Source of the DNA: Planctomycetota bacterium
GTDB taxonomy: Bacteria > Planctomycetota > UBA1135 > UBA2386
NCBI GenBank assembly: GCA_965228735.1
Contig: OZ245838.1
Coordinates: 1,696,001-1,760,000, forward strand
DNA: 64,000 nt
Direction of reading: 5' to 3'
The notes under the pieces were generated by a model, which worked only from the letters and a program-made list of their open reading frames with translations, was not told the origin of the DNA and made no database searches. Shown here piece by piece: positions 20,340-43,494 of this stretch (positions are counted from its first letter, which is position 1; each line of letters starts with the position of its first letter). The translations under genes and the position numbers were made by a program.

Positions 20340-23300
20340 TCAGCGCGCAGCCGGCAGCTTCACCTCGACCCGCGGGTCGACGCTCGCTCCGACCGTGAAC
20401 GAGCCGCGGATCGTCTCGCCCGTCTCCTGCAGTTCGGCGACGTAGTCGTATCGCCCCGCGGTCAGGCCGCGGGTCCATTCGAACGCGCCGGTGCCGTCGA
20501 CCCAGACGAACCGCTTCGCGACGAGCGCGCCGGCCCGGTGGAGCAAGAGGACCACGTGCGCCTGCCACCGTTGCCCGGCCGGCACGCCATCACGTTGGAA
20601 CGCGAATGTGACGGGCGTCGCCGCGGTCAACGGGATGCGATGCTCGATCGCCTCGCCCGCGACGACGTCGACGGTCTCCTCGCACGGCAGGAAGTCCGGG
20701 CCCCAGGTCTTCACCTTGTAGGCGCCGGCCGGCACCGCTTCGGAACGGAGCGCGCCGTCGTCCGTCGCTTCGAACTGGTGCGCGATGTTGCCGGCCGGGT
20801 CACTGCCCACGATGCGATCGGGGTGCACCGACGTGCCATCCGCGGTGACGAACCGCAGCAGGAGTCGGCCCTTCCCGGGCATGCGCAGCGCGCCGAGATC
20901 GACGCGTTCGCGCGGCGCGAGCATTCGCGACGCGACCTGCATGTCGCCGAGGTCGGGCAGATGGAGGCTGAAGTGGTAGTTCCCGGGTGGCAGTGGTCCG
21001 ATCTCGAAGGTGCCGTCCGGCTCGATCTTCGCGTCCTTGTGGCGCCAGCCGAGCTTGGAATCCGCTGGCCTGTAGCTCAGGCTCGCCCTGGTCACCGGCT
21101 CGCCATCCGGGTCGACGAGTACGCCGTGCAGGATCGCGCCGTCCTCTGGCAGATACTGCGCGCGCAACTCGACCTCGGTCGTGCCCGGCCGAATCCCCGA
21201 CACTTCGACCCAGGGCTCGGAACTCGACACGGTCTGCGGCATCGCGACGACCCGGTACGACGACCCCGTGAGCCCCGCGACTTCGAACGAGCCGTCGACC
21301 TGGATCGCTCCGGCCTTGCCACGCCCCGAAGACTCCGAGTAGGCGAAGAGCCACCAACCCGACACCGGCTCGCCGTTGCGATCGACGAGCCGACCACGAA
21401 TCGAACTGGCGCCGGCAGAGCCGAAGTCGACGCGCCGCTCCTCACCGTCGACCAGTTCGAGCCGTTGCCTGCTGTCCGGCATCCGGCTGGCCTCGAGCAA
21501 CACGCTGCCCGCCGGCACGTGCTCGATCCGGTAGTCGCCGGCCGCGCCCGGCGACGCGTGTTGTTTCACGAATCGCTCGGTGAACAAGCGGCGCTCGGCC
21601 CACACCGGCACCGCGGCGACACGGATCCAATCGCGCTCGGAGCCCTCGAGCACGACGCTGCCGTAGACCGCGGCCCCGCGCTCGAGAGTGATCTCGAGTT
21701 CGCGCCGTTCGCCCTCGACGAGCGTGCATTCCCGGTGCGCCATCGCATGTCCGGCAGCGTTCACGATCAGCGAGAACGTGCCCGTCGGCAGGGCGTCGGT
21801 GGCAAACCGACCAGCGGCATCGGTGCGCACCACGACCGGTGCGTTGCTCACCGTCGGCTCGAGCTCCAGGATCGCCACGAGCGCGTCGGCTGCCGGCCGA
21901 TGGTCCACTCCTCGAACGACACCGCGCAAGTGCGTGACGGGAGCGGCGACCACGAACTGCATGTCCGTGTTCTGACCTGGCCGCATGCGCACGGTATCGC
22001 TGCGCTGGAGCCCCGCCTTGTGCGCCCAGAGATGCCCGCCGTTGTCGAGCCCGCCGTGAAACGCGCCGTCGGCATCCGTCACCGCGACGACCGGCGGCGG
22101 CGCGGCCGACGACCGCTCCCGCTCGAGATGGATCGCCGCCCCGGCGACGCCGTTGCCGTCCGCGTCCACCACGCGCCCGGCGAACCACGCCCACGGCTCG
22201 ACCTCGATGCGTTCTCTGGTCGGCCCGTCGCGCCGCACCTCGAACTCGTGCTGCACGCGCGCATTCGAGATCGAATACTCGCCGGGCGGCAGCTCGATCT
22301 GCAGGCGGCCGGCGTCGTTCACCACGTGATCGGAACCGTCGCGGACGAAGTCCCCGTCGGTCGGGTAGAGATGAACGCCGAGGCGCGGCGCCGGCTCGTC
22401 GGTGCCTTGCCAGACGAACTGCAGCGTGACATCGCCCGGTCCGCCGTCGGTCGGTGCCGGCTCTGCCGGGTCACCCACCGCCGGCGCCGACCGCTGCACG
22501 GCGGGCGGGGAGTCCGCCACGGGCCGCGTGACGTTCGCGGGCTCCGCCCGCACGACCGCGTGCCCGTCGACGTTCGGCGCGGTGCCGTTCTCCGACTGCC
22601 CGAACCAGATCGCCCCGCCGATGCACACCAGCGCGACCACGACGACGACAGCGATGACCTTCTTCATGACCAGTCCTCCGAGCAATGTGGCGCCGGCAAC
22701 CGCGGTCGCGGCCGTGGCAGTTCCGGCAGTGGCGACGGGCGCCAGACTCGCGGCCTTGGCGAGCACGACCTCACGCGCGGCCGCGAGCGAACCGCCGCTC
22801 ACGAGCGCGGCGACCGCGGAGACCCCGATGCCGGAGGGCAACGCCTTGCGCAGCCACTCGCGCCCGCGCTGCAGCCGCGTCTTGACGGTGTCGACCGGGC
22901 AACCGAGCGTGCGCGCGATCGCGGTCGGTGTGAGGCCGTGCGCGAGGCGCATGGTGACGACGACGCGCAGGTTCTGCGGCAACGACTCCATCGCCGCGCT
23001 GAGCTGTTCCTGCACCTCCGCCGATTCGAGCAGTTCGATCGGCGACGGTTCGGCGCCCGGCGCGAGCTCCGCCGGATCGGCCTGCCGCGCGCGCTTGCGT
23101 CGCGTGGCCCGAGCGTGGTTGACGAGGATGCCGATGAGCCACGGCATCAGCGGCCGTTCGCCGTCCCAGCGATCGCGCTTCTCGATCGCGTCGAGGAACG
23201 TCGCCTGCACCAGATCCTCACCGTCGCGCTCGGCGACGTGCCCCGCGACGAGCAGCAGCTCGGGCGCCAGCGCGTCGAACACCGCGGCCAGAGCCGCAGG

Positions 23301-23348
23301 GTCGGAACGCCGGCGAAAGCGCTCGAACAGCTCTTCGGGGGAACTCAC
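20340..23348 (-). CDS. ECF sigma factor fused via a TM helix to multiple carboxypeptidase-regulatory-like domains
   Basis: EDLVQATFL / PWLIGILVN (sigma2), IARTLGCPVDTVKTRLQRGR (sigma4), TM VIAVVVVVALVCIGGAIWF, repeated GRVVD.DG.PV.GA motifs. Confidence 0.88.
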   Translation of the reverse strand: MSSPEELFERFRRRSDPAALAAVFDALAPELLLVAGHVAERDGEDLVQATFLDAIEKRDRWDGERPLMPWLIGILVNHARATRRKRARQADPAELAPGAEPSPIELLESAEVQEQLSAAMESLPQNLRVVVTMRLAHGLTPTAIARTLGCPVDTVKTRLQRGREWLRKALPSGIGVSAVAALVSGGSLAAAREVVLAKAASLAPVATAGTATAATAVAGATLLGGLVMKKVIAVVVVVALVCIGGAIWFGQSENGTAPNVDGHAVVRAEPANVTRPVADSPPAVQRSAPAVGDPAEPAPTDGGPGDVTLQFVWQGTDEPAPRLGVHLYPTDGDFVRDGSDHVVNDAGRLQIELPPGEYSISNARVQHEFEVRRDGPTRERIEVEPWAWFAGRVVDADGNGVAGAAIHLERERSSAAPPPVVAVTDADGAFHGGLDNGGHLWAHKAGLQRSDTVRMRPGQNTDMQFVVAAPVTHLRGVVRGVDHRPAADALVAILELEPTVSNAPVVVRTDAAGRFATDALPTGTFSLIVNAAGHAMAHRECTLVEGERRELEITLERGAAVYGSVVLEGSERDWIRVAAVPVWAERRLFTERFVKQHASPGAAGDYRIEHVPAGSVLLEASRMPDSRQRLELVDGEERRVDFGSAGASSIRGRLVDRNGEPVSGWWLFAYSESSGRGKAGAIQVDGSFEVAGLTGSSYRVVAMPQTVSSSEPWVEVSGIRPGTTEVELRAQYLPEDGAILHGVLVDPDGEPVTRASLSYRPADSKLGWRHKDAKIEPDGTFEIGPLPPGNYHFSLHLPDLGDMQVASRMLAPRERVDLGALRMPGKGRLLLRFVTADGTSVHPDRIVGSDPAGNIAHQFEATDDGALRSEAVPAGAYKVKTWGPDFLPCEETVDVVAGEAIEHRIPLTAATPVTFAFQRDGVPAGQRWQAHVVLLLHRAGALVAKRFVWVDGTGAFEWTRGLTAGRYDYVAELQETGETIRGSFTVGASVDPRVEVKLPAAR

Positions 23349-24536: not shown

Positions 24537-24603
24537 TCGCGAGTGCTCACCAACCGTGACGTGCCTTCCCTTGCCGCCACGGACTGGTTAGGCTGCCGCG
24601 CGT

Positions 24604-24680
24604 CGGGCCGTAGCGCAGTCTGGTAGCGCACCTGGTTTGGGACCAGGTGGTCGGAGGTTCGAATCCTCTCGGCCCGACCA
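24604..24680 (+). tRNA. tRNA-Pro (anticodon TGG)
   Basis: CGGGCCG acceptor stem, D-arm TAGCGCAGTCTGGTAGCGC, anticodon arm CCTGG-TTTGGGA-CCAGG, GGTTCGAATCC T-arm, encoded CCA. Confidence 0.98.
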
Positions 24681-24763
24681 ATCTCAATCTGCTGAACGAC
24701 CCGCGTTCGCGACGAACCGCCCTCTGAGGCGAGCGGCAGCCTGGACCCAAGGAGATCGGGACT

Positions 24764-24904
24764 GTCTCGAGCAAGGCTCGCGCCCCCCGCCAGAGCCTGC
24801 AATCCACGGGTCAGTGGCGCGTTCGATTCGACGGCCGCGCCTTCTACCTCGGCACCGACGAGGATGCCGCGATGGATTGGTTCCATGAACTGCGTCAGCA
24901 ATGA
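24764..24904 (+). pseudogene. Remnant of a tyrosine-integrase N-terminal DNA-binding region
   Basis: Translates VSSKARAPRQSLQSTGQWRVRFDGRAFYLGTDEDAAMDWFHELRQQ*; GQWxVxxDGxxxYLG resembles planctomycete integrase N-termini; located right after the tRNA. Confidence 0.55.
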
Positions 24905-24969
24905 AAAGCCGGCGCGCTCCCGACCCCCAGTGCGAGGAGCCGGATCGCCGGGTCCACCGCCAAGATCCC

Positions 24970-24995
24970 TGTAAGGCGGCAGTCGGCACTCCGTC
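24970..24995 (+). promoter_or_regulatory. Putative ECF promoter TGTAAG-N16-CGTC upstream of copZ
   Basis: Same motif and spacing recur at 25324 and 28289. Confidence 0.65.
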
Positions 24996-25024
24996 CGCGG
25001 GGTCGTTCCAACCCAAGATTCGAG

Positions 25025-25300
25025 ATGACAGATCCAACGACTGACAACGACCCCAAGACCACGCTTCTCACGATCGGAGGCATGACGTGTGGCGGCTGCG
25101 TCCGCCGCGTCCACGACGCCCTTGCCGGCCTCCAGGGTGTACGAAACGTCGCGGTTCACTTCGCCCGAAAGGAAGCCGTGGTCACCCATGATCCGAGCGT
25201 CCTCGCAGCCGACCTCGTGCAGGCAATCGGCAACGCGGGCTACGAGGCATCGGGAGCGCCCCCGACTGCAGACCGGCACGATCGCGCACTGCCTGAGTGA
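25025..25300 (+). CDS. copZ: Copper chaperone, HMA domain
   Basis: GMTCGGCV metal-binding motif, 91 aa, directly upstream of a P1B ATPase. Confidence 0.9.
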   Translation: MTDPTTDNDPKTTLLTIGGMTCGGCVRRVHDALAGLQGVRNVAVHFARKEAVVTHDPSVLAADLVQAIGNAGYEASGAPPTADRHDRALPE

Positions 25301-25323
25301 CACACCGCTGCCGCCGCGATTCG

Positions 25324-25349
25324 CGTAATGGGATCGCGTGTCCGGCGTC
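25324..25349 (+). promoter_or_regulatory. Putative ECF promoter CGTAAT-N16-CGTC upstream of copA (possibly leaderless transcript)
   Basis: Matches the other two motifs; ATG at 25358 follows after an 8-nt gap. Confidence 0.55.
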
Positions 25350-25357
25350 AGCCGGGC

Positions 25358-27643
25358 ATGACTACGCTACTTGCCGTGTCCGCGCCCGAGGAGCGGACGG
25401 TTCTCGACCTCACTGGCATGACCTGCGCTGCCTGCGTCGTTCGCGTGGAGCGAGCGATCCGCAAGGTGGCCGGCGTCACCGACGTCGCGGTCAACCTGGC
25501 GACCCAACAGGCTTTGGTGGCCTTCGAGGCCGGGCGAACCACGCGAGCGGGAATCACGAGCGCCATCGAGGGCGCCGGCTACGGAGTCCTGGCGGAGCCA
25601 CAGGCCGCGGCGGCAGTCGACCGCTCGGAGCACGAGCGCCAGGAGCGGCGATCGCTCCAACGGGACCTTCTCGTCGCCGGCGCGGCAACGCTCCCCCTGC
25701 TGGTGTTGGGGATGTCCCACGGTGCGCTGCCGTTCGCCGAGACCGACGCCGGCCGCACGCTCCAGTTCGCGCTCGGCTCGATCGTCCTGTTCGGGCCCGG
25801 CCGTCGCTTCCTGCGGGGCGGCCTGACCGCGCTACGTCACGGAAGTCCCGACATGAACACCCTCGTGTCGCTCGGCGCGGCCGCCGCCTGGCTGTGGTCG
25901 ACGGTCGCCACATTCGCGCCGTCCTGGTTCACGCACGGCGCGCACGAGGCCCCGCACGTGTACTTCGAGGCCGCCGGCGCGATCATCGCGTTCGTCCTGT
26001 TCGGCAAGTTCCTCGAGTCGCGCGCCCGCTGGCGCCTGGGTGACGCGGTCCGCGCCCTTCACGCCCTGGAGCCCGCGGTCGCGCACCGAATCGACGACCT
26101 CGAGGAAGGCACCGACGTTGACGTGCCCGTCGCGTCGTTGCAGCCTGGGGATACGGTCCGGGTGCGGCCCGGAGAGCGGGTTCCGGCGGATGGCGTCGTC
26201 ACGGACGGCGAGTCGGCGCTCGACGAGTCGATGCTGAGCGGCGAGAGCGTGCCGATCGACAAGGCCATCGGCAACCAGGTCGTCGGCGGCAGCATGAATA
26301 CCACCGGGGTCCTGCTCGTGCGGATCCAGCGCACCGGTGCGGAAACCGCGCTTTCGCGGATCACGGCTGCCGTCGAACAGGCTCAAGGCAGCAAGGCGCC
26401 GATCGCCAGGTTCGCCGATCGCGTGAGCGCCGTCTTCGTTCCAATCGTGTTGGGTCTTGCGCTGATCACGTTCGCCACCTGGTGGCTGCTCGACCCAACG
26501 TGGACCGGCGTCGCCACGGCCGTCGAGTACATGGTCGCCGTGCTGGTGATCGCCTGCCCATGTGCGCTCGGCCTGGCCACCCCGGCTGCGGTCGCCGTCG
26601 GCGCCGGCCGAGGCGCAGAACTCGGCGTGCTGTTCCGGACCGGTGCGGCACTCGAGGCGGCGAGCCACATCGACGCGATCTACCTCGACAAGACCGGCAC
26701 GCTGACCAACGGCCGCCCGTCGCTCGTCGCCATCGAACCGCACCCGGGCACAACGGAGGAGCAGCTGTTACGCGAAGCGGCTTCGATCGAACGGGGCAGC
26801 GAGCACCCGTTCGCCCGCGCCGTGGTCGATGCAGCCCGCGAACGGGGTGTCCGGCTGGCCATCGCCCATGACTTCGCCGCCATCCCCGCGATGGGCGTGC
26901 GCGGCAGAGTCGAAGGCGCGGAAGTGCTGGTCGGCAAGGCCGATTGGCTGGCCGAGCAGGGTATCGACGTCGCGCCCGCAATCGCCGCCGGCAGCGAGCT
27001 GGCAGACCGCGGAGTGACGCCACTGCTGGTCGCCCGCGACGGCCACCTGAGCGGGGTGCTCGGGGTTGCCGATGAGCTGCGGATCGATGCCGCCGATGCG
27101 GTTCGGCAGCTGCGTTCGGCAGGCGTTCGGGTCGGCATGTTGACCGGCGACCGGCGAGCCGTTGCCGACGCGGTCGCGGGCGACCTCGGTCTCGATGAGG
27201 TCGCTGCAGAGCTGCTCCCCGAAGACAAGGCGGAGCGAATCCAAGTGGCTCAGGCCGAAGGACATCGGGTGGCAATGGTCGGCGATGGCGTCAACGACGC
27301 TCCGGCCCTGGCCGTCGCCGACGTCGGGATCGCGATCGGCACCGGGACCGACGTCGCCGCCGCGGCCGCGGACGTCGCGCTGCTCCGAGGTGGGATCGCC
27401 GGTGCCCCAGTCGCCCTCGGGCTGGCCCGCGCGACGATGCGGACCATCCGTCGCAACCTGGTCTGGGCCTCGGTCTACAACGTGCTCAGTATCCCCGTCG
27501 CTGCCGGCGCTCTGTCGGGGCTGGGCGTCGGCCTGTCGCCGGTGTATGCCAGCGCCGCGATGTCCCTCTCGAGCGTGTCCGTCCTCCTCAGCAGTCTGCT
27601 TTTGCGGCGCTTTCGCGTCGCCAACGCAACAGGTGTTCGATGA
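25358..27643 (+). CDS. copA: Copper-translocating P1B-type ATPase
   Basis: MTCAAC, YFE, CPCALGLATP, DKTGT, SEHP, GDGVNDAP, YN and MSLSS motifs. Confidence 0.97.
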   Translation: MTTLLAVSAPEERTVLDLTGMTCAACVVRVERAIRKVAGVTDVAVNLATQQALVAFEAGRTTRAGITSAIEGAGYGVLAEPQAAAAVDRSEHERQERRSLQRDLLVAGAATLPLLVLGMSHGALPFAETDAGRTLQFALGSIVLFGPGRRFLRGGLTALRHGSPDMNTLVSLGAAAAWLWSTVATFAPSWFTHGAHEAPHVYFEAAGAIIAFVLFGKFLESRARWRLGDAVRALHALEPAVAHRIDDLEEGTDVDVPVASLQPGDTVRVRPGERVPADGVVTDGESALDESMLSGESVPIDKAIGNQVVGGSMNTTGVLLVRIQRTGAETALSRITAAVEQAQGSKAPIARFADRVSAVFVPIVLGLALITFATWWLLDPTWTGVATAVEYMVAVLVIACPCALGLATPAAVAVGAGRGAELGVLFRTGAALEAASHIDAIYLDKTGTLTNGRPSLVAIEPHPGTTEEQLLREAASIERGSEHPFARAVVDAARERGVRLAIAHDFAAIPAMGVRGRVEGAEVLVGKADWLAEQGIDVAPAIAAGSELADRGVTPLLVARDGHLSGVLGVADELRIDAADAVRQLRSAGVRVGMLTGDRRAVADAVAGDLGLDEVAAELLPEDKAERIQVAQAEGHRVAMVGDGVNDAPALAVADVGIAIGTGTDVAAAAADVALLRGGIAGAPVALGLARATMRTIRRNLVWASVYNVLSIPVAAGALSGLGVGLSPVYASAAMSLSSVSVLLSSLLLRRFRVANATGVR

Positions 27644-28233
27644 ACTGCCACGGGCCTGATCCGGGCTCGTCGAGCGGCCTTTCGGAGCACGTGATGCACG
27701 AGTTGGTCGAGCTGCACCGCGAGTTCCTCGGCTTCGTGGAGCGCCGCGTCGGCGACCGGGCACTCGCCGAAGACCTCGTGCAGGATGCCTTCGTGAAGAG
27801 CCTCGAGCGGGGTGGCGAGCTACGCGACGACGAGTCGGCGCGAGCCTGGTTCTACCGGGTGCTGCGCAACGCCATCATCGACCGACAGCGGCGCACGAGT
27901 AGCGACAGTGGTCGGCTATTGAAGCTGGCAGGCGAGTTGAAACGGGCCGAAGAAGACCGCTCCGCAGCCGCCGACCGTGAACTCTGCCAGTGCGTCGCGC
28001 GCCTGATCGACACGTTGCCGTCCGACCAGGCCACGGTCCTTCGCCGGATCGAGCTGGACGGCATCCCGGTCAAGCAGTTCGCCGCCGAGTCGGGCATCGG
28101 CGAGAGCAACGCGGGCGTGCGCGTGTTCCGCGCCCGCAAGGCCTTGCGCGAGCGGGTTACGCGCTCCTGCGGCACCTGCGCCGAGCACGGTTGCTTCGAT
28201 TGCTCCTGCGGCAGCCAAGAGCCGCACGCCTGA
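27640..28233 (+). CDS. CorE-like metal-responsive ECF sigma factor with a CxC motif and a Cys-rich C-terminus
   Basis: AEDLVQDAF, AWFYRVLRN, LCQCV, C-terminal CGTCAEHGCFDCSC; overlaps the copA stop; no anti-sigma adjacent. Confidence 0.88.
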   Translation: MNCHGPDPGSSSGLSEHVMHELVELHREFLGFVERRVGDRALAEDLVQDAFVKSLERGGELRDDESARAWFYRVLRNAIIDRQRRTSSDSGRLLKLAGELKRAEEDRSAAADRELCQCVARLIDTLPSDQATVLRRIELDGIPVKQFAAESGIGESNAGVRVFRARKALRERVTRSCGTCAEHGCFDCSCGSQEPHA

Positions 28234-28288
28234 CGGCCTGGCGCAGTCGCGTGTCGTCGGCTGGCGTCGCAGCGATTCTCGGCCCTCG

Positions 28289-28314
28289 TGTAAGGAGCGG
28301 GGATCGGCTCCGTC
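28289..28314 (+). promoter_or_regulatory. Putative ECF promoter TGTAAG-N16-CGTC upstream of the YHS-TolC-MCO operon
   Basis: -35/-10 boxes and spacing identical to 24970. Confidence 0.65.
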
Positions 28315-28395
28315 AGCGCTTGCGTGCATGGCGCAACTCCGCGCGGCGCACCGGGCCCAGCGCCCGTCCGACGACCCGATGCCAACGAGGCTCTC

Positions 28396-29103
28396 ATGTT
28401 CGCCAAGCTCCCGCTGCTCTTCCTGACCGCTGCCGTCTCCGCCCAACCGCCCTCGGCGTCGCAAGGCCCGGCTCCCCGGGACGCCGCTCCGACGGTCACC
28501 GCCCCGACCTACCCGAACTCGACATGCCCGATCATGGGCAAGAAGGCCTCGCTGCCGCTGTTCGCGGACACCGAGTTCGGCCGGATCTACGTGTGCTGCA
28601 AGCCGTGCATCCGCAAGGTCCACGCCGACGTCCAGACGGCCTACGAGACCGCATACCCCGCGACCAAGGACCTGCCGAACAAGGTATGCCCGGTATCCGG
28701 GGAGCCGATCGGCAAGCAGGCTGCCTCGGTCCTCCTGCAAGGGATGCGAATCCAGCTCTGCTGCGAGGGTTGCCTCGCCGAAGCGAGACAACACGCGCAA
28801 GTCACCCTCACGAAGGCACACGATCCGAAGATCGAGGATCTCCGGAACCAGCGATGCCCGGTCGACGGCCAGCCCGTCCAACCGAACGCGTTCGCGGTCA
28901 TCGGCGCGACCGTCATCCGGCTCTCCGCGCCGTCGCATCTGGCCCGAGTGCAGAAGGAGCCACAGGCGCAGCTCGACAAGGCGCGTGCGGATCGGAAGAC
29001 AGACGGTCCGAAGCCCGAACACCGGCATCGGCCGGGGTCGCAGCCGGTGAAGATCGTTGTCGGCACGCAAGCCGCGCCATCAACAGGCAAGGAGGGCAAA
29101 TGA
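28396..29103 (+). CDS. Exported Cys-rich protein with three YHS/TRASH-like repeats
   Basis: Signal peptide; NSTCPIMG..CCKPC, NKVCPVSG..CCEGC, NQRCPVDG (third repeat lacks CCxxC). Confidence 0.75.
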   Translation: MFAKLPLLFLTAAVSAQPPSASQGPAPRDAAPTVTAPTYPNSTCPIMGKKASLPLFADTEFGRIYVCCKPCIRKVHADVQTAYETAYPATKDLPNKVCPVSGEPIGKQAASVLLQGMRIQLCCEGCLAEARQHAQVTLTKAHDPKIEDLRNQRCPVDGQPVQPNAFAVIGATVIRLSAPSHLARVQKEPQAQLDKARADRKTDGPKPEHRHRPGSQPVKIVVGTQAAPSTGKEGK

Positions 29104-29279
29104 GCCATAGTCGTCATGCCGCGCGCTGGCTCGCGGCGTTCTTTCTCGCCAGTTGCACCGCGAGCCCACCCATGCCCGACCCCCCTTCGGACCACCCAGC
29201 TTCGGTGAAGAGCGAAAGCTCACCACGCGCGCCCCGATCCGAAGCCCTGTCGATTCCTGATCCGGAGAACAAGCGATGA
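29100..29279 (+). CDS. Small lipoprotein with DHPAS motif
   Basis: GGAGG RBS, ATGA overlaps at both ends, lipobox FLASC; motif shared with 35259-35546. Confidence 0.75.
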   Translation: MSHSRHAARWLAAFFLASCTASPPMPDPPSDHPASVKSESSPRAPRSEALSIPDPENKR

Positions 29280-30709
29280 GATCCCCGGCAATTCTCTCGG
29301 CGACCGTCCTCGCAGGGCTCGCCGCCTGCACCAACGTCGACGCGACTCACCGCACATCGACACTCGAGGTGCAAGGCGCCCTCGCGACCCGGACCGGATT
29401 CGCGCCGGATCGGCGCGCGGATGACTCGGATGCCGTGATCCGCGCGGCCGTGGACGAACTGCTGCGCAACGACCTGACCGAGGAGAACGCCGTGCGCATC
29501 GCCTTGCTCAACAACCACGATGTACGCGCTGGCTACGAACGGCTCGGCATCGCGGCAGCCGACCTCGTAAGGGCCGGGCTGCTGCGCAATCCGGTGTTCG
29601 GTGGCGAAGCCCTGCTGGGCTTCGGCGGCGGAACCGAGATCGCCCTGGGCCTGGCGCAGCCGTTCGTCGACCTGTTCTGGCGTCCGCTGCGCCAGCGCGC
29701 GACCGAGCACGAGCTTCAGGCCACAGTCGCGTCAGTGACTCGCGAGCTCGTGGAGCTGACCTTCAGAGTTCGCCGCGAACTGGTGCGGGTGCGCACGGCC
29801 GCGCAGTTGGTCACCTCGCAGCGACGTTCATTGGCCGCGGCGCAGGCCGCGCACGAACTCATGCAGACGCTCGCCAACGCTGGCAATGTGGTCGGCGCGC
29901 AGTTGTCCTCCGCGCGCCTCGCGGAGGCACGTGCCCGGTTCGATCTGGCGGACGCCGAGCGGGCCGCCATCGAAGTGCGTGAACCACTGAACTCACTGCT
30001 GGGCCTTTGGGGCAGCAGCATCGCCTGGCGCGTGGCGGAAGCCGCGGCGTCTCCAGCTTTCGACCCCGGCGAACGGCCTCCCGTCGAATGGGGTCAGGTC
30101 GAAGCACGAGCGATCGGGGCCAGCCTCGCCCTGGTCGAGAACCGGGCCCGCATCGACGCGGCGGCCCAAGGTGCGCAGATCCGATCGTGGTCTCGCTGGC
30201 TTCCCGACGCCGTGATCGCGGTGTCGGCACGGCGAGATGTGTCGGGTCCGGAAGCGCTGGGCCCGGCGCTGGCCGTGGAGCTCCCGGTCTTCGACGACGG
30301 CAGTGCCGCGACCGCCGCTGCCCGTTCACGAGTCAGGCTGCTCATGCATCGCCACGCGCAGATCGCCATCGAGGTGCGAGCCCTCGCGCGCGTGCTTGCT
30401 GAGCGCAGCGATCGCATTGAGGCACGAGCGCGTTTCACCGAGCTGGTGTACTTGCCGGCCCAGGACCGCCTGCTGCATGAAACGATGCAGAACTACAACG
30501 CGATGCAGATCGGCGCCTTCGACGTCATCGCGCAGAAACTCCGCCAGCTCGAAGCGGTCCGCGAGGCCCTCTTGGCCTCGAGCGATGCTCGTTTGGCACG
30601 CCTGGACCTCGAGGAACTGCTGGCCGGAGGCCAATCCCGAGGCGTCACGACACCCGCTCTGTCGACCGGCAACTCCCGTCCGGACGACAGCAACCGAGGA
30701 GAACACTGA
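29276..30709 (+). CDS. TolC-family outer-membrane efflux lipoprotein (copper oxidase-associated)
   Basis: Lipobox LAAC, AVRIALLNN, AGLLRNP, YNAMQIGAFD. Confidence 0.9.
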   Translation: MRSPAILSATVLAGLAACTNVDATHRTSTLEVQGALATRTGFAPDRRADDSDAVIRAAVDELLRNDLTEENAVRIALLNNHDVRAGYERLGIAAADLVRAGLLRNPVFGGEALLGFGGGTEIALGLAQPFVDLFWRPLRQRATEHELQATVASVTRELVELTFRVRRELVRVRTAAQLVTSQRRSLAAAQAAHELMQTLANAGNVVGAQLSSARLAEARARFDLADAERAAIEVREPLNSLLGLWGSSIAWRVAEAAASPAFDPGERPPVEWGQVEARAIGASLALVENRARIDAAAQGAQIRSWSRWLPDAVIAVSARRDVSGPEALGPALAVELPVFDDGSAATAAARSRVRLLMHRHAQIAIEVRALARVLAERSDRIEARARFTELVYLPAQDRLLHETMQNYNAMQIGAFDVIAQKLRQLEAVREALLASSDARLARLDLEELLAGGQSRGVTTPALSTGNSRPDDSNRGEH

Positions 30710-32079
30710 TGAAAAGCAACCGACGACAGTTCTTTGCCGGATCCGTACTGGCCGGCTTCGCGGGCATGTTGCCTGTCTCTCTTGCCAACCCCCAGTCCCC
30801 GGCGAACGGCGCGCCGCCGCCCGGTTTACCAGGTGTGCACTACCGGCCCGTCGAGGTCCCGGATGGTGTGGTCCTGCCGTGGCGCATCGTCGACGGTGCG
30901 AAGGTGTTCCATCTGACGGCCGAAGAGGTCGAGCACGAGTTTGCGCCGGGTCTCACGACACGCTGCTGGGGCTACAACGGCCGCGTGCACGGCCCGACCA
31001 TCGAGGCGGTCGAGGGCGACCGCCTACGCATCTACGTGACCAACCGCCTGGACGTCGCCACTTCCGTGCACTGGCACGGCTTGCTCCTGCCGAACGGCAT
31101 GGACGGCGTCGCCGGCCTGACGCAGCGTGCGATCGAGCCAGGCGAGACGTTCCGCTACGAGATCACGCTGCGGCAGCACGGCACGTTCATGTTCCACTCG
31201 CACCACGACGAGATGACGCAGATGGCGCTCGGCATGATGGGCATGTTCGTCGTGCATCCGCGCGAGCCGCAGGGACCGCTGCCCGACCGCGACTTCGTCT
31301 ACATGATCGGCGAATGGTCCGTGCGGCCCGGCATGCGTCGCCCGGACCCCAACGAGATGACGGACTTCAACGTCCTGACGCTGAACGGCCGCGTCTTCCC
31401 CGGGACATCGCCGATGGTGGTGAAGACCGGGGATCGCGTGCGGGTTCGCATCGGCAACTTGAGCGCGATGGACCACCACCCCATGCACCTGCACGGACAC
31501 GCGTTCGAGGTCGTCGAGACCGACGGCGGCAGGGTGCCGGTGACTGCGCGGTGGCCAGAGACGACGGTTCTGGTTCCGACGGGGTCGACCCGGACATTCG
31601 AGTTCGTCGCGGATGCGGCGGGCGACTGGGCGTTCCACTGCCACATGACGCACCACGTGATGACCCAGATGGGGCATGGCATGCCCAACTTGATCGGCGT
31701 CGATCCGAGCCTCTTCGACCAGAGGCTCGCCGAAGTCGTGCCGGAGTTCGCCGCGATGGGGCACACCGGCGGACACCACGGGGAAGACACGACGATGCCG
31801 CCCAACAGTCTGCCGATGATGGGCGGGACGGCTGGATTCGGCTACGTCACGATGGGCGGCATGCTGACGGTGCTGAAGGTACGCGACCGGCTCACGGATC
31901 ACGCCGATCCGGGTTGGTTCGGGCATCCGGACGGCACCGTCGCGCGACCCGCGTCTGCGGCGGAACTCGAGCAGGATGGAGTCCGAGTCGGACATGGCGA
32001 CCCGCGCTCCGACACGCGCCGCGATCCCCATTCCGGTTCGATCGACAGCCCGCTCGAATGGCGCGAACAAAGGCGGTAG
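30709..32079 (+). CDS. Two-domain multicopper oxidase, Tat-exported, with Met/His-rich tail
   Basis: NRRQFF; HWHG, HSHH, HPMHLHGH, HCHMTHHVMTQM. Confidence 0.95.
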   Translation: MKSNRRQFFAGSVLAGFAGMLPVSLANPQSPANGAPPPGLPGVHYRPVEVPDGVVLPWRIVDGAKVFHLTAEEVEHEFAPGLTTRCWGYNGRVHGPTIEAVEGDRLRIYVTNRLDVATSVHWHGLLLPNGMDGVAGLTQRAIEPGETFRYEITLRQHGTFMFHSHHDEMTQMALGMMGMFVVHPREPQGPLPDRDFVYMIGEWSVRPGMRRPDPNEMTDFNVLTLNGRVFPGTSPMVVKTGDRVRVRIGNLSAMDHHPMHLHGHAFEVVETDGGRVPVTARWPETTVLVPTGSTRTFEFVADAAGDWAFHCHMTHHVMTQMGHGMPNLIGVDPSLFDQRLAEVVPEFAAMGHTGGHHGEDTTMPPNSLPMMGGTAGFGYVTMGGMLTVLKVRDRLTDHADPGWFGHPDGTVARPASAAELEQDGVRVGHGDPRSDTRRDPHSGSIDSPLEWREQRR

Positions 32080-32284
32080 CCGCCGCGATGCTGAACTCGT
32101 GGACCGGCGCCGACCGCCGACGACGGGCACGACGAGGGCGACGCAACAAAGCGCAAGGCGGACGTTGCCGCGATCGTACCGGACCGATTCGCCGGGCGCG
32201 CCCACCGTCGTCACCCGCTGCGGAACGGCAGGACCAGTCTACGATCGTCCTCGAACGCGGCCCGATGCCCGCGCTCTGAAGCGA

Positions 32285-33601
32285 CTACACGTCGATGCCA
32301 TCTCGTCGACGATCGTCCTCCGACGCGGGGCCGGCGACGGTGCCTTCCGGGTGCGCGAACCAACCCGGATCCCGATTCGCATCGAGGTCCTCGTCCGACA
32401 GCCCTGCCCGCACCTTCAGAACCCCGGCCATGCCTCCGAGGCTGATGTTCTCGCCGAACCCACCTTCGGCCTTGACCATGGGCACGCTGTTCTCGGGCAA
32501 CGGCATGCCGCTGTCGGTCATGTCCCCCATGCCCTTCGCCCCCATCGTCATGTAGCCCGGCAGCACCGATCGAACTCGGCGGTCGAAGCCCTTCGCATCG
32601 AAGCCGATCATGTTGGGGAACGCGTGGCCCATCTGCGTCATGACGTGATGGGTCATGTGACAATGGAAGGCCCAGTCACCCACGTTGACGGCATCGAACT
32701 CGATGTCGCGGGTCTCCCCGACACCGACCAACGTCGTCACGCGGCGCCGCTGCTGTTCGTCGGGAATGCGGCAGCCGTCGATCGCCGTCTCCAAGAACTC
32801 GTAGCCATGGAGGTGGATCGGATGGTGATCCATCGCCGAGAGGTTGCCGATTCGCATCCGCACTCGCTGCCCCTTGCGCACGACCAGCGGATCCAGGAAC
32901 GGGAAGACCTTGCCGTTCATCGTCAGGACGTTGAAGTCGCTCATCTCGTTCGGGTTCGGCCGGCGCGCACCGGCGTCGATACGCCACTCGTGCAGCATCA
33001 GCGCGAAGTCGCGGTCGACCGGCGCGCTCGCGCCGTCAGCCGGGTGGATCACGAACATGCCCGTCAGGCCCATGCCCTCCTGCGTCATCGTGTCGTGATG
33101 GCTGTGGAACATGTGGGTCCCGTTCTGGCGTAGCTCGAACTCGTACAGCCACGTCTCCCCGGGCGGGATCGGGGGCTGCGTCAAACCACTCACGCCGTCC
33201 ATACCGTTGGGCAGGATGAGACCGTGCCAGTGCGTCGAGGTCGGAGCCGGCAGCTTGTTGGTGACGTAGATGCGCACGCGGTCACCCTCGACCGCCTCGA
33301 TCACGTGACCGTTCACCATCTTGTTGAAGCCCCAGCACCGGGCCACGAGCCCCGGCGCGAACGTGTGCTCGAACTCTTCGACGACGAGGTGATAGACCTT
33401 GGCCCCGTCGACGTTCCGCATCGGCGCCTTGCTGCCGCTGGGGACGATGACCGGTCGATGGTCCCGTGGATGCGCCCCCCCCGCGCACGGCCGCCGCAAG
33501 TCGCGTCGGATACTGCGCGCGCTCGCACGCTCGGCAGCCGTCAATGCGGCCGCTGCGCCGGCGGCAGCGCCAGAGAACAGGAAATTGCGTCGGGTACTCA
33601 T
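32285..33601 (-). CDS. Two-domain multicopper oxidase paralog, Tat-exported
   Basis: TRRNFL; HWHG, HSHH, HPIHLHG, HCHMTHHVMTQM. Confidence 0.95.
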   Translation of the reverse strand: MSTRRNFLFSGAAAGAAAALTAAERASARSIRRDLRRPCAGGAHPRDHRPVIVPSGSKAPMRNVDGAKVYHLVVEEFEHTFAPGLVARCWGFNKMVNGHVIEAVEGDRVRIYVTNKLPAPTSTHWHGLILPNGMDGVSGLTQPPIPPGETWLYEFELRQNGTHMFHSHHDTMTQEGMGLTGMFVIHPADGASAPVDRDFALMLHEWRIDAGARRPNPNEMSDFNVLTMNGKVFPFLDPLVVRKGQRVRMRIGNLSAMDHHPIHLHGYEFLETAIDGCRIPDEQQRRRVTTLVGVGETRDIEFDAVNVGDWAFHCHMTHHVMTQMGHAFPNMIGFDAKGFDRRVRSVLPGYMTMGAKGMGDMTDSGMPLPENSVPMVKAEGGFGENISLGGMAGVLKVRAGLSDEDLDANRDPGWFAHPEGTVAGPASEDDRRRDGIDV

Positions 33602-33641
33602 GTCGATTCGTTCGGTGAAACCATGAAGGACGATTCGTGGG

Positions 33642-33805
33642 CTAGTGCCGTGTACCGGAGGTCACCTTGTAGTTCGCGAGGTCATTCGCGTTCCTGGCAA
33701 GGAGCGATCCGCAGGAGTATTGGTGGATACGCCGAGGACGCGCGACGTAGCCAGGGGCGTGAAGGGCCCGCGAACTACAAGGTGACTTTCGGTACATGGC
33801 ACTAG
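33642..33805. mobile_element. MITE-like element: 37-bp terminal inverted repeats (34/37), CTAG at both ends
   Basis: CTAGTGCCGTGTACCGGAGGTCACCTTGTAGTTCGCG (33642-33678) vs CGCGAACTACAAGGTGACTTTCGGTACATGGCACTAG (33769-33805). Confidence 0.75.
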
Positions 33806-35259
33806 TGACCGCCGTTGCCGCCGGCGCCCGCGATGGCCGATACCGATCCCAGTCCGGGCCCGGTGATCCCGAATCGCGTCGCCGGCAAGCGGCCCAGCAG
33901 CAGCGCCTCGAGCTGGCTGCGCGCGATCCAGTGCATCTTCAGCTCCTCGATGTAGCGCCGGGCAGCCTCGAGTTCGGCACGCTTGGCGTCGACGACGCGG
34001 AACACGCCGACCTGCATCGCATTGAACTGCTCCTGCGTCCGCTGCGTGATGCGGGTGCGAAGTGGCACGACGACCTTGAACAGGTGCCGGGCGTTGTTGC
34101 CGCTGACCTCGGAAGCGACGAGGCTGTCGCGCGCCGAGCGCCGGATACGGATCGCGAGATCGGTCAGCCGATGGAACGCCTGCTCGATCTCGGCCCGCAC
34201 GTGGGCGGAGACAGCCTGACCGAAGTCGAAGACCGGCAAGGAGAGCGACGCGCTGCCACCCACGATCCAGCTCTCGGAAGCCTCGCGCTCGCCGCTGACG
34301 CCGACGCCGCCCGTCGGCAACGCGGCACTCAGCTGCTCGAGCCCGAGTCGGTGGCCCAGCATCGTCAGCTCACGACGCCCAGCCTCGAGATCGAGACTTG
34401 CTGCGACGACCCGCTTCTCGAACTCGGCAGGCTCCATCGACAGCGGCGCCGGCTCGGGCATCCGGCCGGCGATCTGCCACTCTTCGCCCTCCGGACCGGA
34501 CAGCCCGAACAGGACGTTCAGGTTCTCGCGATGGCGACGGACGTTTTTGCGGGCTTCGGTCAGCGCCAGTCGCGCGTCTTCGAAGACCGCCTGCTCTTGC
34601 AGCAGTTCGAGCTCGATGACGTTGCCGGCGGCTCGCAGGCGCCGCGTCGCATCGAGGGTCAGCCGCGCGGCATCCATCGCCGTTTCGAAGAGCTCGACGA
34701 GCTGCTGATCAGCCTGCAGGGCGCGGTAGTTGGCCCGCACCTCGGTCGCGAGATCGAGGACCGCACCGGTGACGCGGGCCTCGACCTGGGCGAGCCGCTC
34801 GGCCGCGACCTGGCGGCGGCGCGGGATCAACAGCACATCGACGATGCTCTGGGCGACGCCGAGTTCGAGGATGTCGCCACCGCCGGCCTCGGCGAAACGC
34901 AGCTGCGCGCCGATCACCGGGTTCGGCGCGAGCGAAGCCTGCCAGATCTGCGCGCGCGCGATCTCGAGTTCGGCCAGCTCGGCGTGCAGCATCGGATTGT
35001 TCGCGACCGCCAGTCGAACGGCATCGTCCGCGCCGAGCCGCTCGCCGGCGAGCAACTGCTGGATGCCCTCGGGACGAAGGGGGCGGGTCGCGAGGTCCAT
35101 GCTGGCCCCCAGCCGCTCGTGAACGGCGTCCTGCACGTCGGCCAACACGCGCTCACGTCGCGGCACTGCGCATGCACCGGCCAGCAATGCGAGCGCGCCG
35201 CAGATCGCCACCCGGGATCGAGCGGCGCCCGAACGTCCTGGCAGTAGTCGACCACGCAT
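33802..35259 (-). CDS. TolC-family outer-membrane efflux lipoprotein paralog
   Basis: Lipobox LAGAC, AVRLAVANNP, ASLAPNP, FNAMQVGVF. Confidence 0.9.
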   Translation of the reverse strand: MRGRLLPGRSGAARSRVAICGALALLAGACAVPRRERVLADVQDAVHERLGASMDLATRPLRPEGIQQLLAGERLGADDAVRLAVANNPMLHAELAELEIARAQIWQASLAPNPVIGAQLRFAEAGGGDILELGVAQSIVDVLLIPRRRQVAAERLAQVEARVTGAVLDLATEVRANYRALQADQQLVELFETAMDAARLTLDATRRLRAAGNVIELELLQEQAVFEDARLALTEARKNVRRHRENLNVLFGLSGPEGEEWQIAGRMPEPAPLSMEPAEFEKRVVAASLDLEAGRRELTMLGHRLGLEQLSAALPTGGVGVSGEREASESWIVGGSASLSLPVFDFGQAVSAHVRAEIEQAFHRLTDLAIRIRRSARDSLVASEVSGNNARHLFKVVVPLRTRITQRTQEQFNAMQVGVFRVVDAKRAELEAARRYIEELKMHWIARSQLEALLLGRLPATRFGITGPGLGSVSAIAGAGGNGGH

Positions 35260-35546
35260 CAGCGCTGCTCCTTCGGCCTGTGGCCATGCATGGCGCCGTG
35301 GCCCTCGTCGCCGCCCATCTCGGCCATCTCGTTGGCCGGCTCCACCGCCTCGATCCGGTCCGGGACAGCCGCCGGGTCCGGCACGTCGAAGCCACCGCCA
35401 GTCGGCGCACTCGCGGAGGCCGGATGGTCGGGCGGCAGATCCAGACGAAACGTGCTGACGCAGGCGCCGGCACTGAAAGTGACGCAGAGCAGGGCGAGCG
35501 CCAGACGCCGGGAAGACAGGCGCGATGGCGATGGTGGTCGTTGCAT
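35259..35546 (-). CDS. Small lipoprotein with DHPAS motif and His/Met-rich tail
   Basis: SAGAC lipobox, LPPDHPAS, MAEMGGDEGHGAMHGH; stop overlaps the TolC start. Confidence 0.75.
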   Translation of the reverse strand: MQRPPSPSRLSSRRLALALLCVTFSAGACVSTFRLDLPPDHPASASAPTGGGFDVPDPAAVPDRIEAVEPANEMAEMGGDEGHGAMHGHRPKEQR

Positions 35547-35800
35547 GTTCATGGGAGGGGGTCGCGGGCGATCGCCGCAAACGATGTGCCAGGCCATGCC
35601 ATCCTGCCTACCGCGCCGAGTCGCGCCGAGATAAGCGTTGGATGGCCAATACGTTGTGTAGTCCGGATCCTCGGCGGCCGAACCCTTGCATGCCGGCAGT
35701 ACGCGCTCGAGTTCGGCACCGGTGCTTCTGGGCGGTGCACCAGCGCGGAGGCGGGTATGCACCGGAGGACCTCATTCTCTGGCCCACGCGCACCGACGCC

Positions 35801-36142
35801 TCACTTCAGGGTCTTCCAACTCTCGGCCACGAACTTGCCGTCCTCCATGGCACCGACGGTCTCGACCTTGGCGCCCTTGTCCTTGTGGGCGCACCACTCC
35901 ATCCGGCCGAGCGTCGGGTGGATCATCGGGACATACTTGCCCTCGATCAGGATGTAGTTGCCGCAGCTGCCGACGCTTTCGATCGAGCAACCGCACTTGA
36001 CGTCGTGCACGACGGCCTTGGCAACAGGGTCGCCCTGGCCCGCCGGGGCCGGCGGAGCGGCCTGATCCGGGACCTTGTCGGTCGTGCACGCGCCGAACGC
36101 GAACGGGATGGAGAGGACGAACGAAAGCAGGGTTCTACGCAT
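35801..36142 (-). CDS. Small Cys-containing lipoprotein (DUF6370-like)
   Basis: FGAC lipobox; KCGC...SCGNY...WC...GAMEDGKFVAESW; follows cusA. Confidence 0.65.
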   Translation of the reverse strand: MRRTLLSFVLSIPFAFGACTTDKVPDQAAPPAPAGQGDPVAKAVVHDVKCGCSIESVGSCGNYILIEGKYVPMIHPTLGRMEWCAHKDKGAKVETVGAMEDGKFVAESWKTLK

Positions 36143-36190
36143 CGTTGGTTGTTGGGTTGGAGGAACAAAGAAGGGGTCCAATTGCCCGTA

Positions 36191-39100
36191 TCAGGCCTGC
36201 TCGGACCGGGAAGGAGAGGCCGAGAACCGCAAGCGCAGCTCCTCGACCAACGCATAGAGCACGGGCACGACGAAGATCGTGACGACCGCCACGAGCATCC
36301 CACCGAAGGACGGAATCGCCATTGGCACCATCACGTCGCTGCCCTTGCCGGTGGAGGTCAGGACCGGAAGGAGCGCGAGAACGGTGGTCGCAGTCGTCAT
36401 CAGACAAGGGCGAATCCGGCGCTTGCCGGCAACGACCACGGCCTCACGGATCTCATCCACGTTCGTCGGTCGCCGCCGCTTGAAGCTCTGCTGCAGGTAG
36501 GTGCTCATCAACACGCCGTCGTCGGTCGCGATGCCGAAGAGCGCGAGAAAGCCCACCCAGACCGCCACGCTCAGGTTGATCGGCGAGACCTGGAACAGTT
36601 CGCGCACGTCGCGACCGAGAACCTCGAACGAGAGGAACCAGTCCTGACCGTAGAGCCAGAGCATCAGGAAGCCTCCCGACCACGCAACGAAGACCCCGGT
36701 GAAGACGAGCAGCGTCGTCGATACTCGCCGGAACTGCAGGTAGAGGATCAGGAAGATGACGAACAGTGCCAAGGGCAACACGATCCTCAACCGCTCCGTT
36801 GCGCGGACCTGGTTCTCGTAGTTGCCCGCGAATCGATAGCTCACACCTGCCGGCAGCTCGAGCTCACCCTCTTCGAGCTTCCGCTCCAGGAAGCGGCGAC
36901 AGTCCTCGACCACTTCGACTTCCGCGAAACCCGGATTCTTGTCGAAGATCACGTAGCCGGTCAGAAACGTGTCCTCGCTCTTGATGGTCTGCGGCCCGGG
37001 CTTGTAGCGCACCTCGGCAAGCTGGCCGATCGGAACTTGGGTCCCGTCCTTTGCTGCAACGAGGATTCGCTCCAGTTCGTCGATGCGGTCCCGCAACTCG
37101 CGCTGATAGCGCACCCGCACCGGGTATCGCTCACGCCCCTCCACGGTCGTCGTAATCCGGCGCCCTCCGATCGCGACCTCGATCACGTCCTGCACATCGC
37201 GCACGTGCAGCCCGTAGCGGGCGATCGCCTCACGGTCGATCTCGATCTCCAGGTAGGGCTTGCCAACGATTCGATCCGCCGAGACGGTCGCTGCGTTGAC
37301 CGACGGAACTTGCTGCAGCAGCTTCTCGATATCGACGCCGACTCGCTCGATCGTCGCGAGGTCCGGGCCACGCACCTTGATGCCGAAAGGCGCGCGCATG
37401 CCGGTTTGCAGCATGATCCGCCGCGTCTCGATCGGCTGCAGCATCGATGCCGTCGTCATGCCCGGAACCTCGGCAGCCTTCGCGACCTCGTCCCAGATGT
37501 CGTCGGGAGAACGAATGTGGTCGCGCCACTGTCGGAACGGCCGGCCGTCGTCATCGGGCACGAGCCGCCCAGCCTCATCTCGAACGAACTCGCTCTGGTC
37601 CGAGTCGTAGGCGAAACGCATCAAGTCGCCACGGGCATCGAGCCGGTACTCCGGCACGTAGTTGATGACGGTCTCAACCATGCCGACCGGCGCAGGGTCG
37701 AGGGCGCTCTCCGCACGGCCGATCTTGCCGACGACGTCCTGCACTTCCGGAACTGCTCGAATGCGTCGATCCTGGACCTGGAGCAGTTCGAGAGCTTCGC
37801 CGATCGATGCGTGGTACATCGTGATCGGCATCAGTAGAAACGAGCCCTCGTCGAGGCGAGGCATGAACTCCTGCCCAAGGCCCGGGAAGGCGTGCGCCAG
37901 ACCAGACCACGCCCTCGAGGCCTTGAGTTCGTCCGACGTCATGGCCCGTGTCTCCGTATCGGAGACCCAACCCGCGACCGACATCCCTGCTCTGCTCACG
38001 GCTGAGATGGTGTCGGGCACGAACGCGAACACGCGCCCGAAGCCGAACCAGATCGTCGCACCGAGCAGACACAAGAATGCAGGAGCAGTCAGGAAGACCA
38101 GTTTGTGCGCGAGGCACCACCGCAACAGCGGCTCGTAAGCCCACTGCACCAAGCGGAAGAACAGCAGGAATCCTCCAACCAGGACGAGCGTGAAGACGAC
38201 GTTGCCGACCGACTGCTCGGGCCCGAGCGGCGCCCAGGTCGATGCCAGCAGCACGCCGGTTGCAATCGCCAGCAACGCATTCACGCCCCAACGCAGGGCG
38301 GCTGCCATACCGTCCGGCATGCGACGCTGCACTTCTCTCCAGGTGAACAGGGCCGCAACGACAGCTGCCGCCCACCAGGCAACGAGCCACCCGAGGAGCA
38401 CGACTGCGCCGAGGACGGTCGCGGCGCGCGCGCGCCCAACCGTCCTGCCGCGCCCAACCGGAAACAGGAGGTGAGCGACCGGCGGAATGATCACGAGCGC
38501 GACGACGATCGATGCCAATAGTGCAAACGTCTTGGTGAACGCCAACGGCCGGAACAGCTTCCCTTCCGCGCCTTCCATCGTGAAAACTGGCAAGAAGCTC
38601 ACGACCGTCGTCAGTACCGCGGTCAGCACGGCCGAGCCGACTTCGCTGGCACCCGCTTGGATCGCGTCCTTGCGCTCCTTCGCTGTGTCGTTGGGGCGGA
38701 TCTTCCCGAGGATGCTCTCGCAGATGACCACGCCCATGTCGACCATCGTGCCGATCGCGATCGCGATCCCCGACAACGCGACCACGTTCGCATCGACACC
38801 GAACTGCTTCATCGCGATGAAGCACATCAACACCGAGAGCGGGAGCAGTCCGGAGATCAGCCCCGCGCTTCGCAAGTGCGCAATCATCAGCAGCACCACG
38901 AGTATGGTGACGAGAATCTCATCTCGTAGCGCGTCGTTGAGCGTCCCGAGCGTCTCCTGAATCAACCCGGTGCGGTCGTAGAACGGCACCACGCGCACTT
39001 GCGAGATGGTGCCGTCGTCCAAGGTCTTGCGAGGCAGACCGGCCTCGATCTCCTCGACGCGCTCCTTGACCCGCTGGATGACCGCGAGCGGGTTGGCGCC

Positions 39101-43385: not shown

Positions 43386-43494
43386 GGTCAGACCTGTCGG
43401 AAGGAGCAGTTCACACCGCGTCCATCCGCGGTGCAGAATCGGCGCGAAACGCACCGACCGGCCTCGTCGTCCCGCGACGGGCCGGCTCCACCGA

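Follow-up and report, generated by a model that had tools for sequence, protein, structure and literature searches.

A conserved bipartite motif as the predicted promoter of a CorE-like copper sigma factor in a Planctomycetota bacterium

Organization of the locus

Within a 64,000-nt stretch of the genome of a Planctomycetota bacterium (GenBank assembly GCA_965228735.1, contig OZ245838.1, positions 1,696,001 to 1,760,000; hereafter the window) lies an ordinary copper-resistance cluster that includes the gene of a CorE-like extracytoplasmic function (ECF) sigma factor. In this cluster, three copies of a bipartite motif occur in a span of 3.35 kb, all intergenic and each just 5′ of a copper unit, and we consider it very probable, from sequence comparison, that they are promoters recognised by the CorE-type sigma factor encoded beside them. 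An earlier reading made from the letters of the window (the sequence-only reading) had proposed these exactly spaced motifs as the target of the sigma factor; their coordinates and their flanks TGTAAG, CGTAAT and TGTAAG are as it described.

The features of the cluster are all on the forward strand. The first predicted promoter (24970-24995; −35 TGTAAG at 24970-24975, 16 nt, −10 CGTC at 24992-24995) precedes a gene for a copZ-type HMA metallochaperone of 91 amino acids (25025-25300; Pfam HMA E 1.7e-16, NCBIfam CopZ matches below their cut-offs). The second (25324-25349; CGTAAT, 16 nt, CGTC) precedes copA, which encodes a copper-translocating P1B ATPase of 761 amino acids from the ATG at 25358 (25358-27643; TIGR01511 559 bits, cut-off 397), and the CorE-like sigma gene (P0001, 27640-28233, 197 amino acids), whose start overlaps the copA stop (ATGA). 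The third (28289-28314; TGTAAG, 16 nt, CGTC) stands before a secreted protein-lipoprotein-efflux-oxidase unit of four genes whose stops overlap the next starts. These encode a Cys-motif, YHS/TRASH-like protein with a signal-peptide-like N-terminus (28396-29103), a lipoprotein-like open reading frame (ORF) of 59 amino acids (29100-29279; a LASC lipobox-like sequence judged by eye, no family match), an outer-membrane efflux protein (OEP, TolC-like; 29276-30709, PF02321 E 2.9e-14) and a CuoB-like multicopper oxidase (30709-32079; TIGR01480 E 7.8e-54, below the cut-off). The sequence-only reading had taken this unit as YHS-lipoprotein-TolC-oxidase. Its TolC-like and oxidase genes stand, whereas ORF 28396 has neither a Pfam YHS match nor a lipobox, and its Pfam search returned no significant match (only TRASH, E 0.044); the lipoprotein is kept as the distinct 59-amino-acid ORF.

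The sigma factor consists only of a sigma-2 domain plus a sigma-4.2 domain (PF04542 and PF08281, both above cut-off) and does not reach the cut-off of the SigZ equivalog TIGR02959 (105.6 vs 168.65 bits). It has a CxC motif (C116-Q-C118) and a tail with C177, C180, A181, C185, C188 and C190. The Cys/Ala tail of CorE includes C181, C184, A185, C189, C192 and C194, and factors of the copper type are recognised by having Ala, not Cys, at 185 (PMC3107203, PMC4937300). The four invariant tail Cys of CorE (181, 184, 192 and 194) are matched by C177, C180, C188 and C190, and C185 corresponds to CorE C189. Judged by these residues, the protein is a copper-type CorE factor (ECF44, now in ECF238), and copper rather than cadmium or zinc is its predicted signal because Ala181 is equivalent to CorE Ala185. 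Reviews describe CorE-like factors as switched directly by metal, with two characterised members, both from Myxococcus xanthus; by analogy (PMC3107203, PMC4937300), the window sigma factor would also be activated by direct metal binding. Its immediate neighbours are copA and the secreted-type Cys protein without a family match, and its wider neighbourhood is one of metal homeostasis (copZ, copA, OEP, oxidases and CusA/B-type genes). Its named close homologs are from Planctomycetota.

The reverse strand carries another oxidase-OEP pair and a group of CusA/CusB/OEP-type efflux genes (32285-43454), which are convergent with the operon predicted to be under sigma control and do not have the motif. 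Among the reverse-strand oxidase, OEP and CusCBA-type genes at 31-47 kb the best score of the motif matrix described below is 10.6 (rank 173), compared with 17.5-21.9 at the three sites. The sequence-only reading had likewise seen no motif ahead of these operons, and its suggestion of separate control is consistent with the missing site. Upstream, a tRNA-Pro gene (24604-24680) lies directly 5′ of the copper cluster; no att-like repeat of its 3′ end was found near the cluster. A further ECF sigma factor of 1001 amino acids, with a long C-terminal extension past a hydrophobic stretch, is encoded at 20340-23348 on the reverse strand.

Conservation of the motif

We scanned for the pattern GTAA-N17-CGTC, whose window copies are interpreted as a −35 (TGTAA[G/T]), 16 nt and a −10 (CGTC). 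The window contains exactly three matches, all on the forward strand (24971-24995, 25325-25349 and 28290-28314), and shuffled versions of the window contain a mean of 0.65, with three or more in 1 of 100 shuffles. The whole genome (7.19 Mb, 69.4% GC) contains 21 matches. Spacer 17 is not enriched genome-wide, with 20-46 matches at each of spacers 12-22, and this spectrum rules out a large regulon in the host genome. Two identical matches at genome positions 1628615 and 3643434 resemble ribosomal RNA gene sequence and are presumably due to chance. The window count alone is weak, since the motif was defined after the fact and spacer 17 shows no genome-wide excess; because the pattern was derived from the window sites, it was tested out of sample in other loci.

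A homolog search with the window sigma factor gave 80 loci, 16 of them close (36-73% identity, four phyla) and 64 from distant ECF factors. All 16 close loci carry the motif, with 21 matches at spacer 17 and 0-3 at other spacers, while the distant loci carry it in 11 of 64, with a flat spectrum of 7-21 matches per spacer. It was also found in 17 of 20 wider loci of relatives, some on contigs that are the same as in the 80-locus set. In a search centred on Myxococcaceae (40 loci), GTAA-N17-CGT gave 55 matches compared with 2-13 at other spacers; the strict CGTC is present in 19 of the 40 loci and CGTT in many. These data were pooled into 169 distinct sigma factors with 2-16 kb per locus, dropping a two-sigma locus and excluding loci of the host genome itself. 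GTAA-N17-CGT[CT] occurs in 126 of the 169 CorE-like loci, with 167 matches at spacer 17 and 6-31 at other spacers, although locus counts in this set are descriptive only because kin are not independent. The proposal that the motif is the target of the sigma factor, for which conservation around related sigma genes had been named as a check, is supported at the close and the pooled loci, across four phyla and including counterparts of CorE and CorE2 targets. A chance origin, with matches picked after the fact, would fit the lack of a genome-wide excess and the one shuffle in 100 that reached three matches. It is already refuted by the out-of-sample data, in which related loci peak sharply at a single spacer and control loci do not, and we give it practically no weight.

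A matrix built from 70 sites of other genomes, close relatives included, places the window sites at ranks 1-3 genome-wide. With a matrix from 47 non-Planctomycetota sites they rank 1, 2 and 4 (promoter 3 second, promoter 2 fourth), and the site of a paralogous sigma factor, described below, ranks fifth. The third-ranked match, at genome position 5374350, falls inside a long ORF that runs along the other strand, so a high matrix score alone is no proof of a promoter. The scan that the sequence-only reading had called for recovers its three sites near the top, and beyond these and the paralog's site it gave no convincing further target. For 47 of the 70 distinct sites a same-strand homolog of a reference gene (a metal gene, sigma gene or operon-leading ORF) lies within 700 nt downstream, and sites matching promoter 3 precede homologs of ORF 28396 in loci L005, L112, L113 and L123. 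Across 24600-33800, a sigma-70 scan returned 0 promoter-like sites and a terminator scan returned four terminator-like sites, which is the chance level, with none between copZ and copA.

Several variations were seen among the other loci. Six sigma factors from the Myxococcaceae search (L273, L275, L277-L280) have Trp at the −31 residue (see below), a different Cys tail and 0 spacer-17 sites; in L277, L278 and L279 there are GTAAG sites whose spacer is longer by one base, which may represent a variant of shifted spacing. In L008, L009 and L195 the motif occurs as paired copies, divergent, back-to-back or overlapping, that serve genes on both strands. A CorE-type site precedes a cupredoxin ORF in L199 (site at 3792 on the forward strand, ORF 3900-4280), and likewise in L165, L168 and L198.

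Predicted start sites and autoregulation

With CGTC numbered −13 to −10, a pyrimidine-purine step is expected at −1 or +1; Todor et al. report such a step in 67.3% of promoters (10.1101/2020.06.23.168245). The step is present at 134 of 156 sites (94 at +1 and 40 at −1), at positions that were not used in site selection. Positions +2 to +7 show it at 11-33 sites, and a conserved step near the −10 box gives 72. By this rule promoter 1 would start at G25005, leaving a 20-nt leader to copZ, promoter 2 at A25358 and promoter 3 at G28324. An in-frame GTG lies at 28324, and a GAGG sequence is located 5′ of the ATG at 28396.

A25358 is the first base of the copA ATG. The motif copy ends 8 nt before this codon, as had been noted from the sequence, and no purine-rich ribosome site is found 5′ of it. 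The ATG at 25328 was considered as an alternative copA start from promoter 2 and rejected, as it falls in the −35 box itself. Among copA-type sites of other genomes, 8 of 14 have an in-frame ATG 8-9 nt after the motif; all eight are from close relatives, so a leaderless start would be a trait of this clade rather than a rule of the family. On balance we think that copA is probably leaderless.

Since the sigma gene is in the copA-sigma operon behind promoter 2, the window sigma factor is predicted to be autoregulated. Autoregulation is not general in the CorE-like family. Of the 126 loci, 12 have a same-strand site no more than 250 nt upstream of the sigma gene and a further 36 have one within 4.5 kb (48 of 126 altogether), and 78 have none in the DNA examined.

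Recognition of base −31

Todor et al. (10.1101/2020.06.23.168245) showed experimentally that the residue equivalent to Arg171 of RpoE sets base −31; Asp at the Asn84 position goes with −13C/−12G and a basic residue at Lys56 with −11T. In SigW, K170 forms a bond with the G of the template at −31 (PMC6713349). G159 of the window sigma factor aligns to Arg171 in a helix without gaps, and D81, taken as the Asn84 equivalent from an ungapped count off a conserved Trp, and K53 (Lys56) fit −13C, −12G and −11T. Gly159 would allow the factor to read G or T at −31, the two bases found at its three sites.

Across the other sigma factors, those with Ala, Gly, Ser, Met, Asn or Thr at this position have G at 97 sites, T at 44, C at 1 and A at 2 (G or T in 141 of 144). 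Lys goes with C at 10 of 10 sites, Arg with T at 6 and C at 5 of 11, and Phe with A at one and T at one. Counted per locus, a G site is present with 0 of 19 basic-residue sigma factors and a C site with 1 of 108 others. The residue changes about 9-10 times on the tree; for its basic state a quick tree gives 9 changes, at least four of them forced by supported branches. Metal type, as judged by the double-Cys tail, was rejected as a predictor of the base, given that such sigma factors have G at 5 sites, C at 3 and T at 1.

The host genome encodes about 140 ECF-like proteins, and one of these outside the CorE-like group might read the promoters instead. The architecture of the motif is generic for ECF factors (ECF16, tGTAACc-N16-CGAA; ECF41, TGTCACA-N16-CGTC), and two other, non-CorE host factors combine Val172 with Asp84. 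Residue 171 of these two is Lys or Arg, for which C would be expected at −31, and the window sites do not have C there; among the 142 ECF-like host proteins whose helix could be aligned, a non-basic 171 together with Val172 and Asp84 is unique to the window sigma factor. In addition, the motif tracks CorE-like genes across phyla and not other ECF genes, and we judge this alternative to be highly unlikely.

The motif could also be an operator bound by some other metal regulator, such as one of the CueR, CsoR or two-component type. It is found only before metal genes, and in M. xanthus copA and corE receive a second copper input that is independent of CorE (PMC3107203). However, the motif is bipartite and non-palindromic, its spacer is constant at 16 nt and it always points the same way relative to the gene, it is followed by a start-site signature, and it varies with a residue of sigma-4. 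An operator of this kind is extremely unlikely.

The second CorE-like sigma factor

The genome encodes a second CorE-like sigma factor (genome 600283-600837; 43% identity to the window sigma factor) with Arg at the −31 residue, a copper-type tail and Val172/Asp84. Behind it comes a TGTAAC-N16-CGTC site, which lies 9 nt ahead of the ATG of a P-type ATPase that bears an HMBD. The protein is 100% identical in another genus of the same family (G013:C1:2974558-2975109), with the same TGTAAC site, and identity across genera suggests a recently moved metal-resistance island.

Given the Arg and the TGTAAC site of the paralog and the Gly of the window sigma factor, the two factors are likely to be largely insulated. 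The paralog would not be expected to read the two GTAAG sites and might read the GTAAT promoter of copA-sigma, so that any overlap would be confined to that promoter. A possible elaboration, compatible with control by the window sigma factor, is that the paralog also drives the sites, mostly the GTAAT promoter, and thereby primes the window loop. The two proteins share Val172/Asp84 and the copper-type tail, and T occupies −31 at 6 of the 11 sites of Arg-class sigma factors. However, G at −31 is found at 0 of the 21 sites of basic-residue factors but at two of the three in the window, C is represented among the sites of the paralog and its three closest neighbours on the tree, any match is present in only 21 of 100 relatives, and many loci carry the motif with a single sigma factor. 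We hold a contribution of the paralog to be a tentative and rather doubtful addition.

Counterparts of CorE and CorE2

The comparison with the characterised factors was made in a Myxococcaceae genome (G209) with counterparts of CorE and CorE2, and not on M. xanthus DK1622 itself. The Cys of its first sigma factor are at 120, 122, 181, 184, 189, 192, 194 and 206, and all but the last of these are positions published for CorE. Five units have a TGTAAG-N16-CGT site 49-108 nt ahead of their starts: a P1B ATPase, a cupredoxin, an ORF-OEP-oxidase-sigma unit, an HMA gene and an ATPase with a YHS domain. The CorE regulon of M. xanthus comprises copA, copB, OEP-cuoB and MXAN_3427 (PMC3107203), and four of the five site-bearing units are of these reported target types; the cupredoxin is predicted to be an additional regulon member beyond the four published targets. 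The single CGTG site of G209 precedes its copA-like gene, and M. xanthus copA is only partly dependent on CorE, with a second, CorE-independent copper input at copA and corE (PMC3107203).

The second sigma factor of G209 matches the Cys numbering of CorE2, counted from the first Met of the frame, and has Lys at the −31 residue. It is directly followed by TGTAAC-N16-CGTC and then by CDF and Kelch/glyoxal-oxidase genes, a content that matches the cadmium-induced CorE2 operon of M. xanthus (PMC4937300). Mutants of M. xanthus show no cross-activation: induction of cuoB by cadmium or zinc needs CorE (PMC3107203) and induction of MXAN_5265 needs CorE2. By the correspondence above, base −31 would be the cause of this insulation.

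Discussion

From these observations we propose a working model for the cluster. At basal state the window sigma factor would be inactive. Binding of Cu(II) by the CxC motif and tail would activate it without an anti-sigma factor, and reduction to Cu(I) would switch it off, both steps being modelled on CorE. The active factor would fire the three promoters and yield the chaperone, the exporter, more sigma factor and the periplasmic/outer-membrane module, with the copA-sigma operon forming a positive loop.

Besides the flat genome-wide spacer spectrum, the kinship within the pooled set and the coding-region match, several points weigh against our interpretation. No site was found in the 2-16 kb examined at 43 of the 169 pooled loci. 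The published CorE site was obtained by manually aligning four sequences on AAC plus a single G (PMC3107203), and AAC adjoins our site in only one of four G209 target regions; an AAC-anchored register for G209 was itself rejected as not common to the four sites. As for recognition, phmmer placed a gap where D81 was equated with Asn84, and Met goes with G at 9 of 9 sites here, as opposed to T in the ECF32 mutagenesis of Todor et al. An independent-pairs test of the −31 correspondence was not significant (five supported pairs, of which 2-3 agree and about 0 oppose; p 0.25-0.5), a tree-corrected test that is underpowered.

With these points considered, we lean towards two broader conclusions: that TGTAA[G/T/C]-N16-CGT[C/T] may be a family-wide promoter of CorE-like factors, coupled with a one-residue partition of paralogs, and, with similar leaning, that the RpoE-171 equivalent may divide co-resident paralogs into insulated regulons. 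If so, the lack of cross-activation between the copper factor CorE and the cadmium/zinc factor CorE2 of M. xanthus would be accounted for, and the result would be a system with two knobs in which one Cys sets the metal and one helix residue sets the promoter. The insulation of CorE and CorE2 becomes a question of one base and one residue. With the consensus, regulons can be predicted in Planctomycetota, Myxococcota, Acidobacteriota and Verrucomicrobiota, and it provides orthogonal promoters, inducible by metal, for use in biosensors.

A family-wide definition is at odds with the 2021 ECF classification, according to whose supplement ECF238 has neither conserved predicted promoter motifs nor autoregulation (PMC7826278); ECF44 makes up about 13% of ECF238, the group covered by that statement. 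Surveys that examine only the region upstream of the sigma gene would miss the motif, given that only 12 of the 126 loci carry one in the 250 nt next to that gene. Our literature search found no published consensus for CorE-like promoters, though Figure S3 of PMC3107203, which lies outside the text covered, may overlap, and the review texts examined give no mapped promoter for these factors. In the accessible parts of Todor et al. we found no application of the code to CorE or CorE2: ECF44, copper and Myxococcus are not mentioned, and the supplement lacks MXAN_3426 and MXAN_5263. The type of system is already known.

Compared with CorE of M. xanthus, the window sigma factor has a Planctomycetota host and a shorter tail without an equivalent of Cys206, and is predicted to be co-transcribed behind copA from a leaderless start; the published CorE site is anchored on AAC, and the consensus here is TGTAA[G/T]-N16-CGT[C/T]. 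CorE2 (PMC4937300) belongs to the same family, and its G209 counterpart has the same −10 box and spacer as the window sites. It differs in its cadmium/zinc-type tail with an extra Cys, and in the Lys and TGTAAC of the counterpart as opposed to the Gly and GTAAG/GTAAT of the window. Assignment of the window sites to ECF16 or ECF41 was rejected, as they are GTAAG or GTAAT with CGTC. ECF16 (tGTAACc-N16-CGAA) and EcfF (GTAAC(g,a)-N14-15-(c,t)CG(t,a)) have the GTAA core and a similar spacing in common with the window, whereas ECF16 has C at −31, another −10 consensus and control by an anti-sigma factor (PMC3420878). ECF41 (TGTCACA-N16-CGTC) has the same −10 as the window sites and, as is predicted for the window sigma factor, lacks an anti-sigma factor and is regulated by a C-terminal extension; it differs in its −35, in a SnoaL-like extension instead of a Cys tail and in its targets (PMC3426412).

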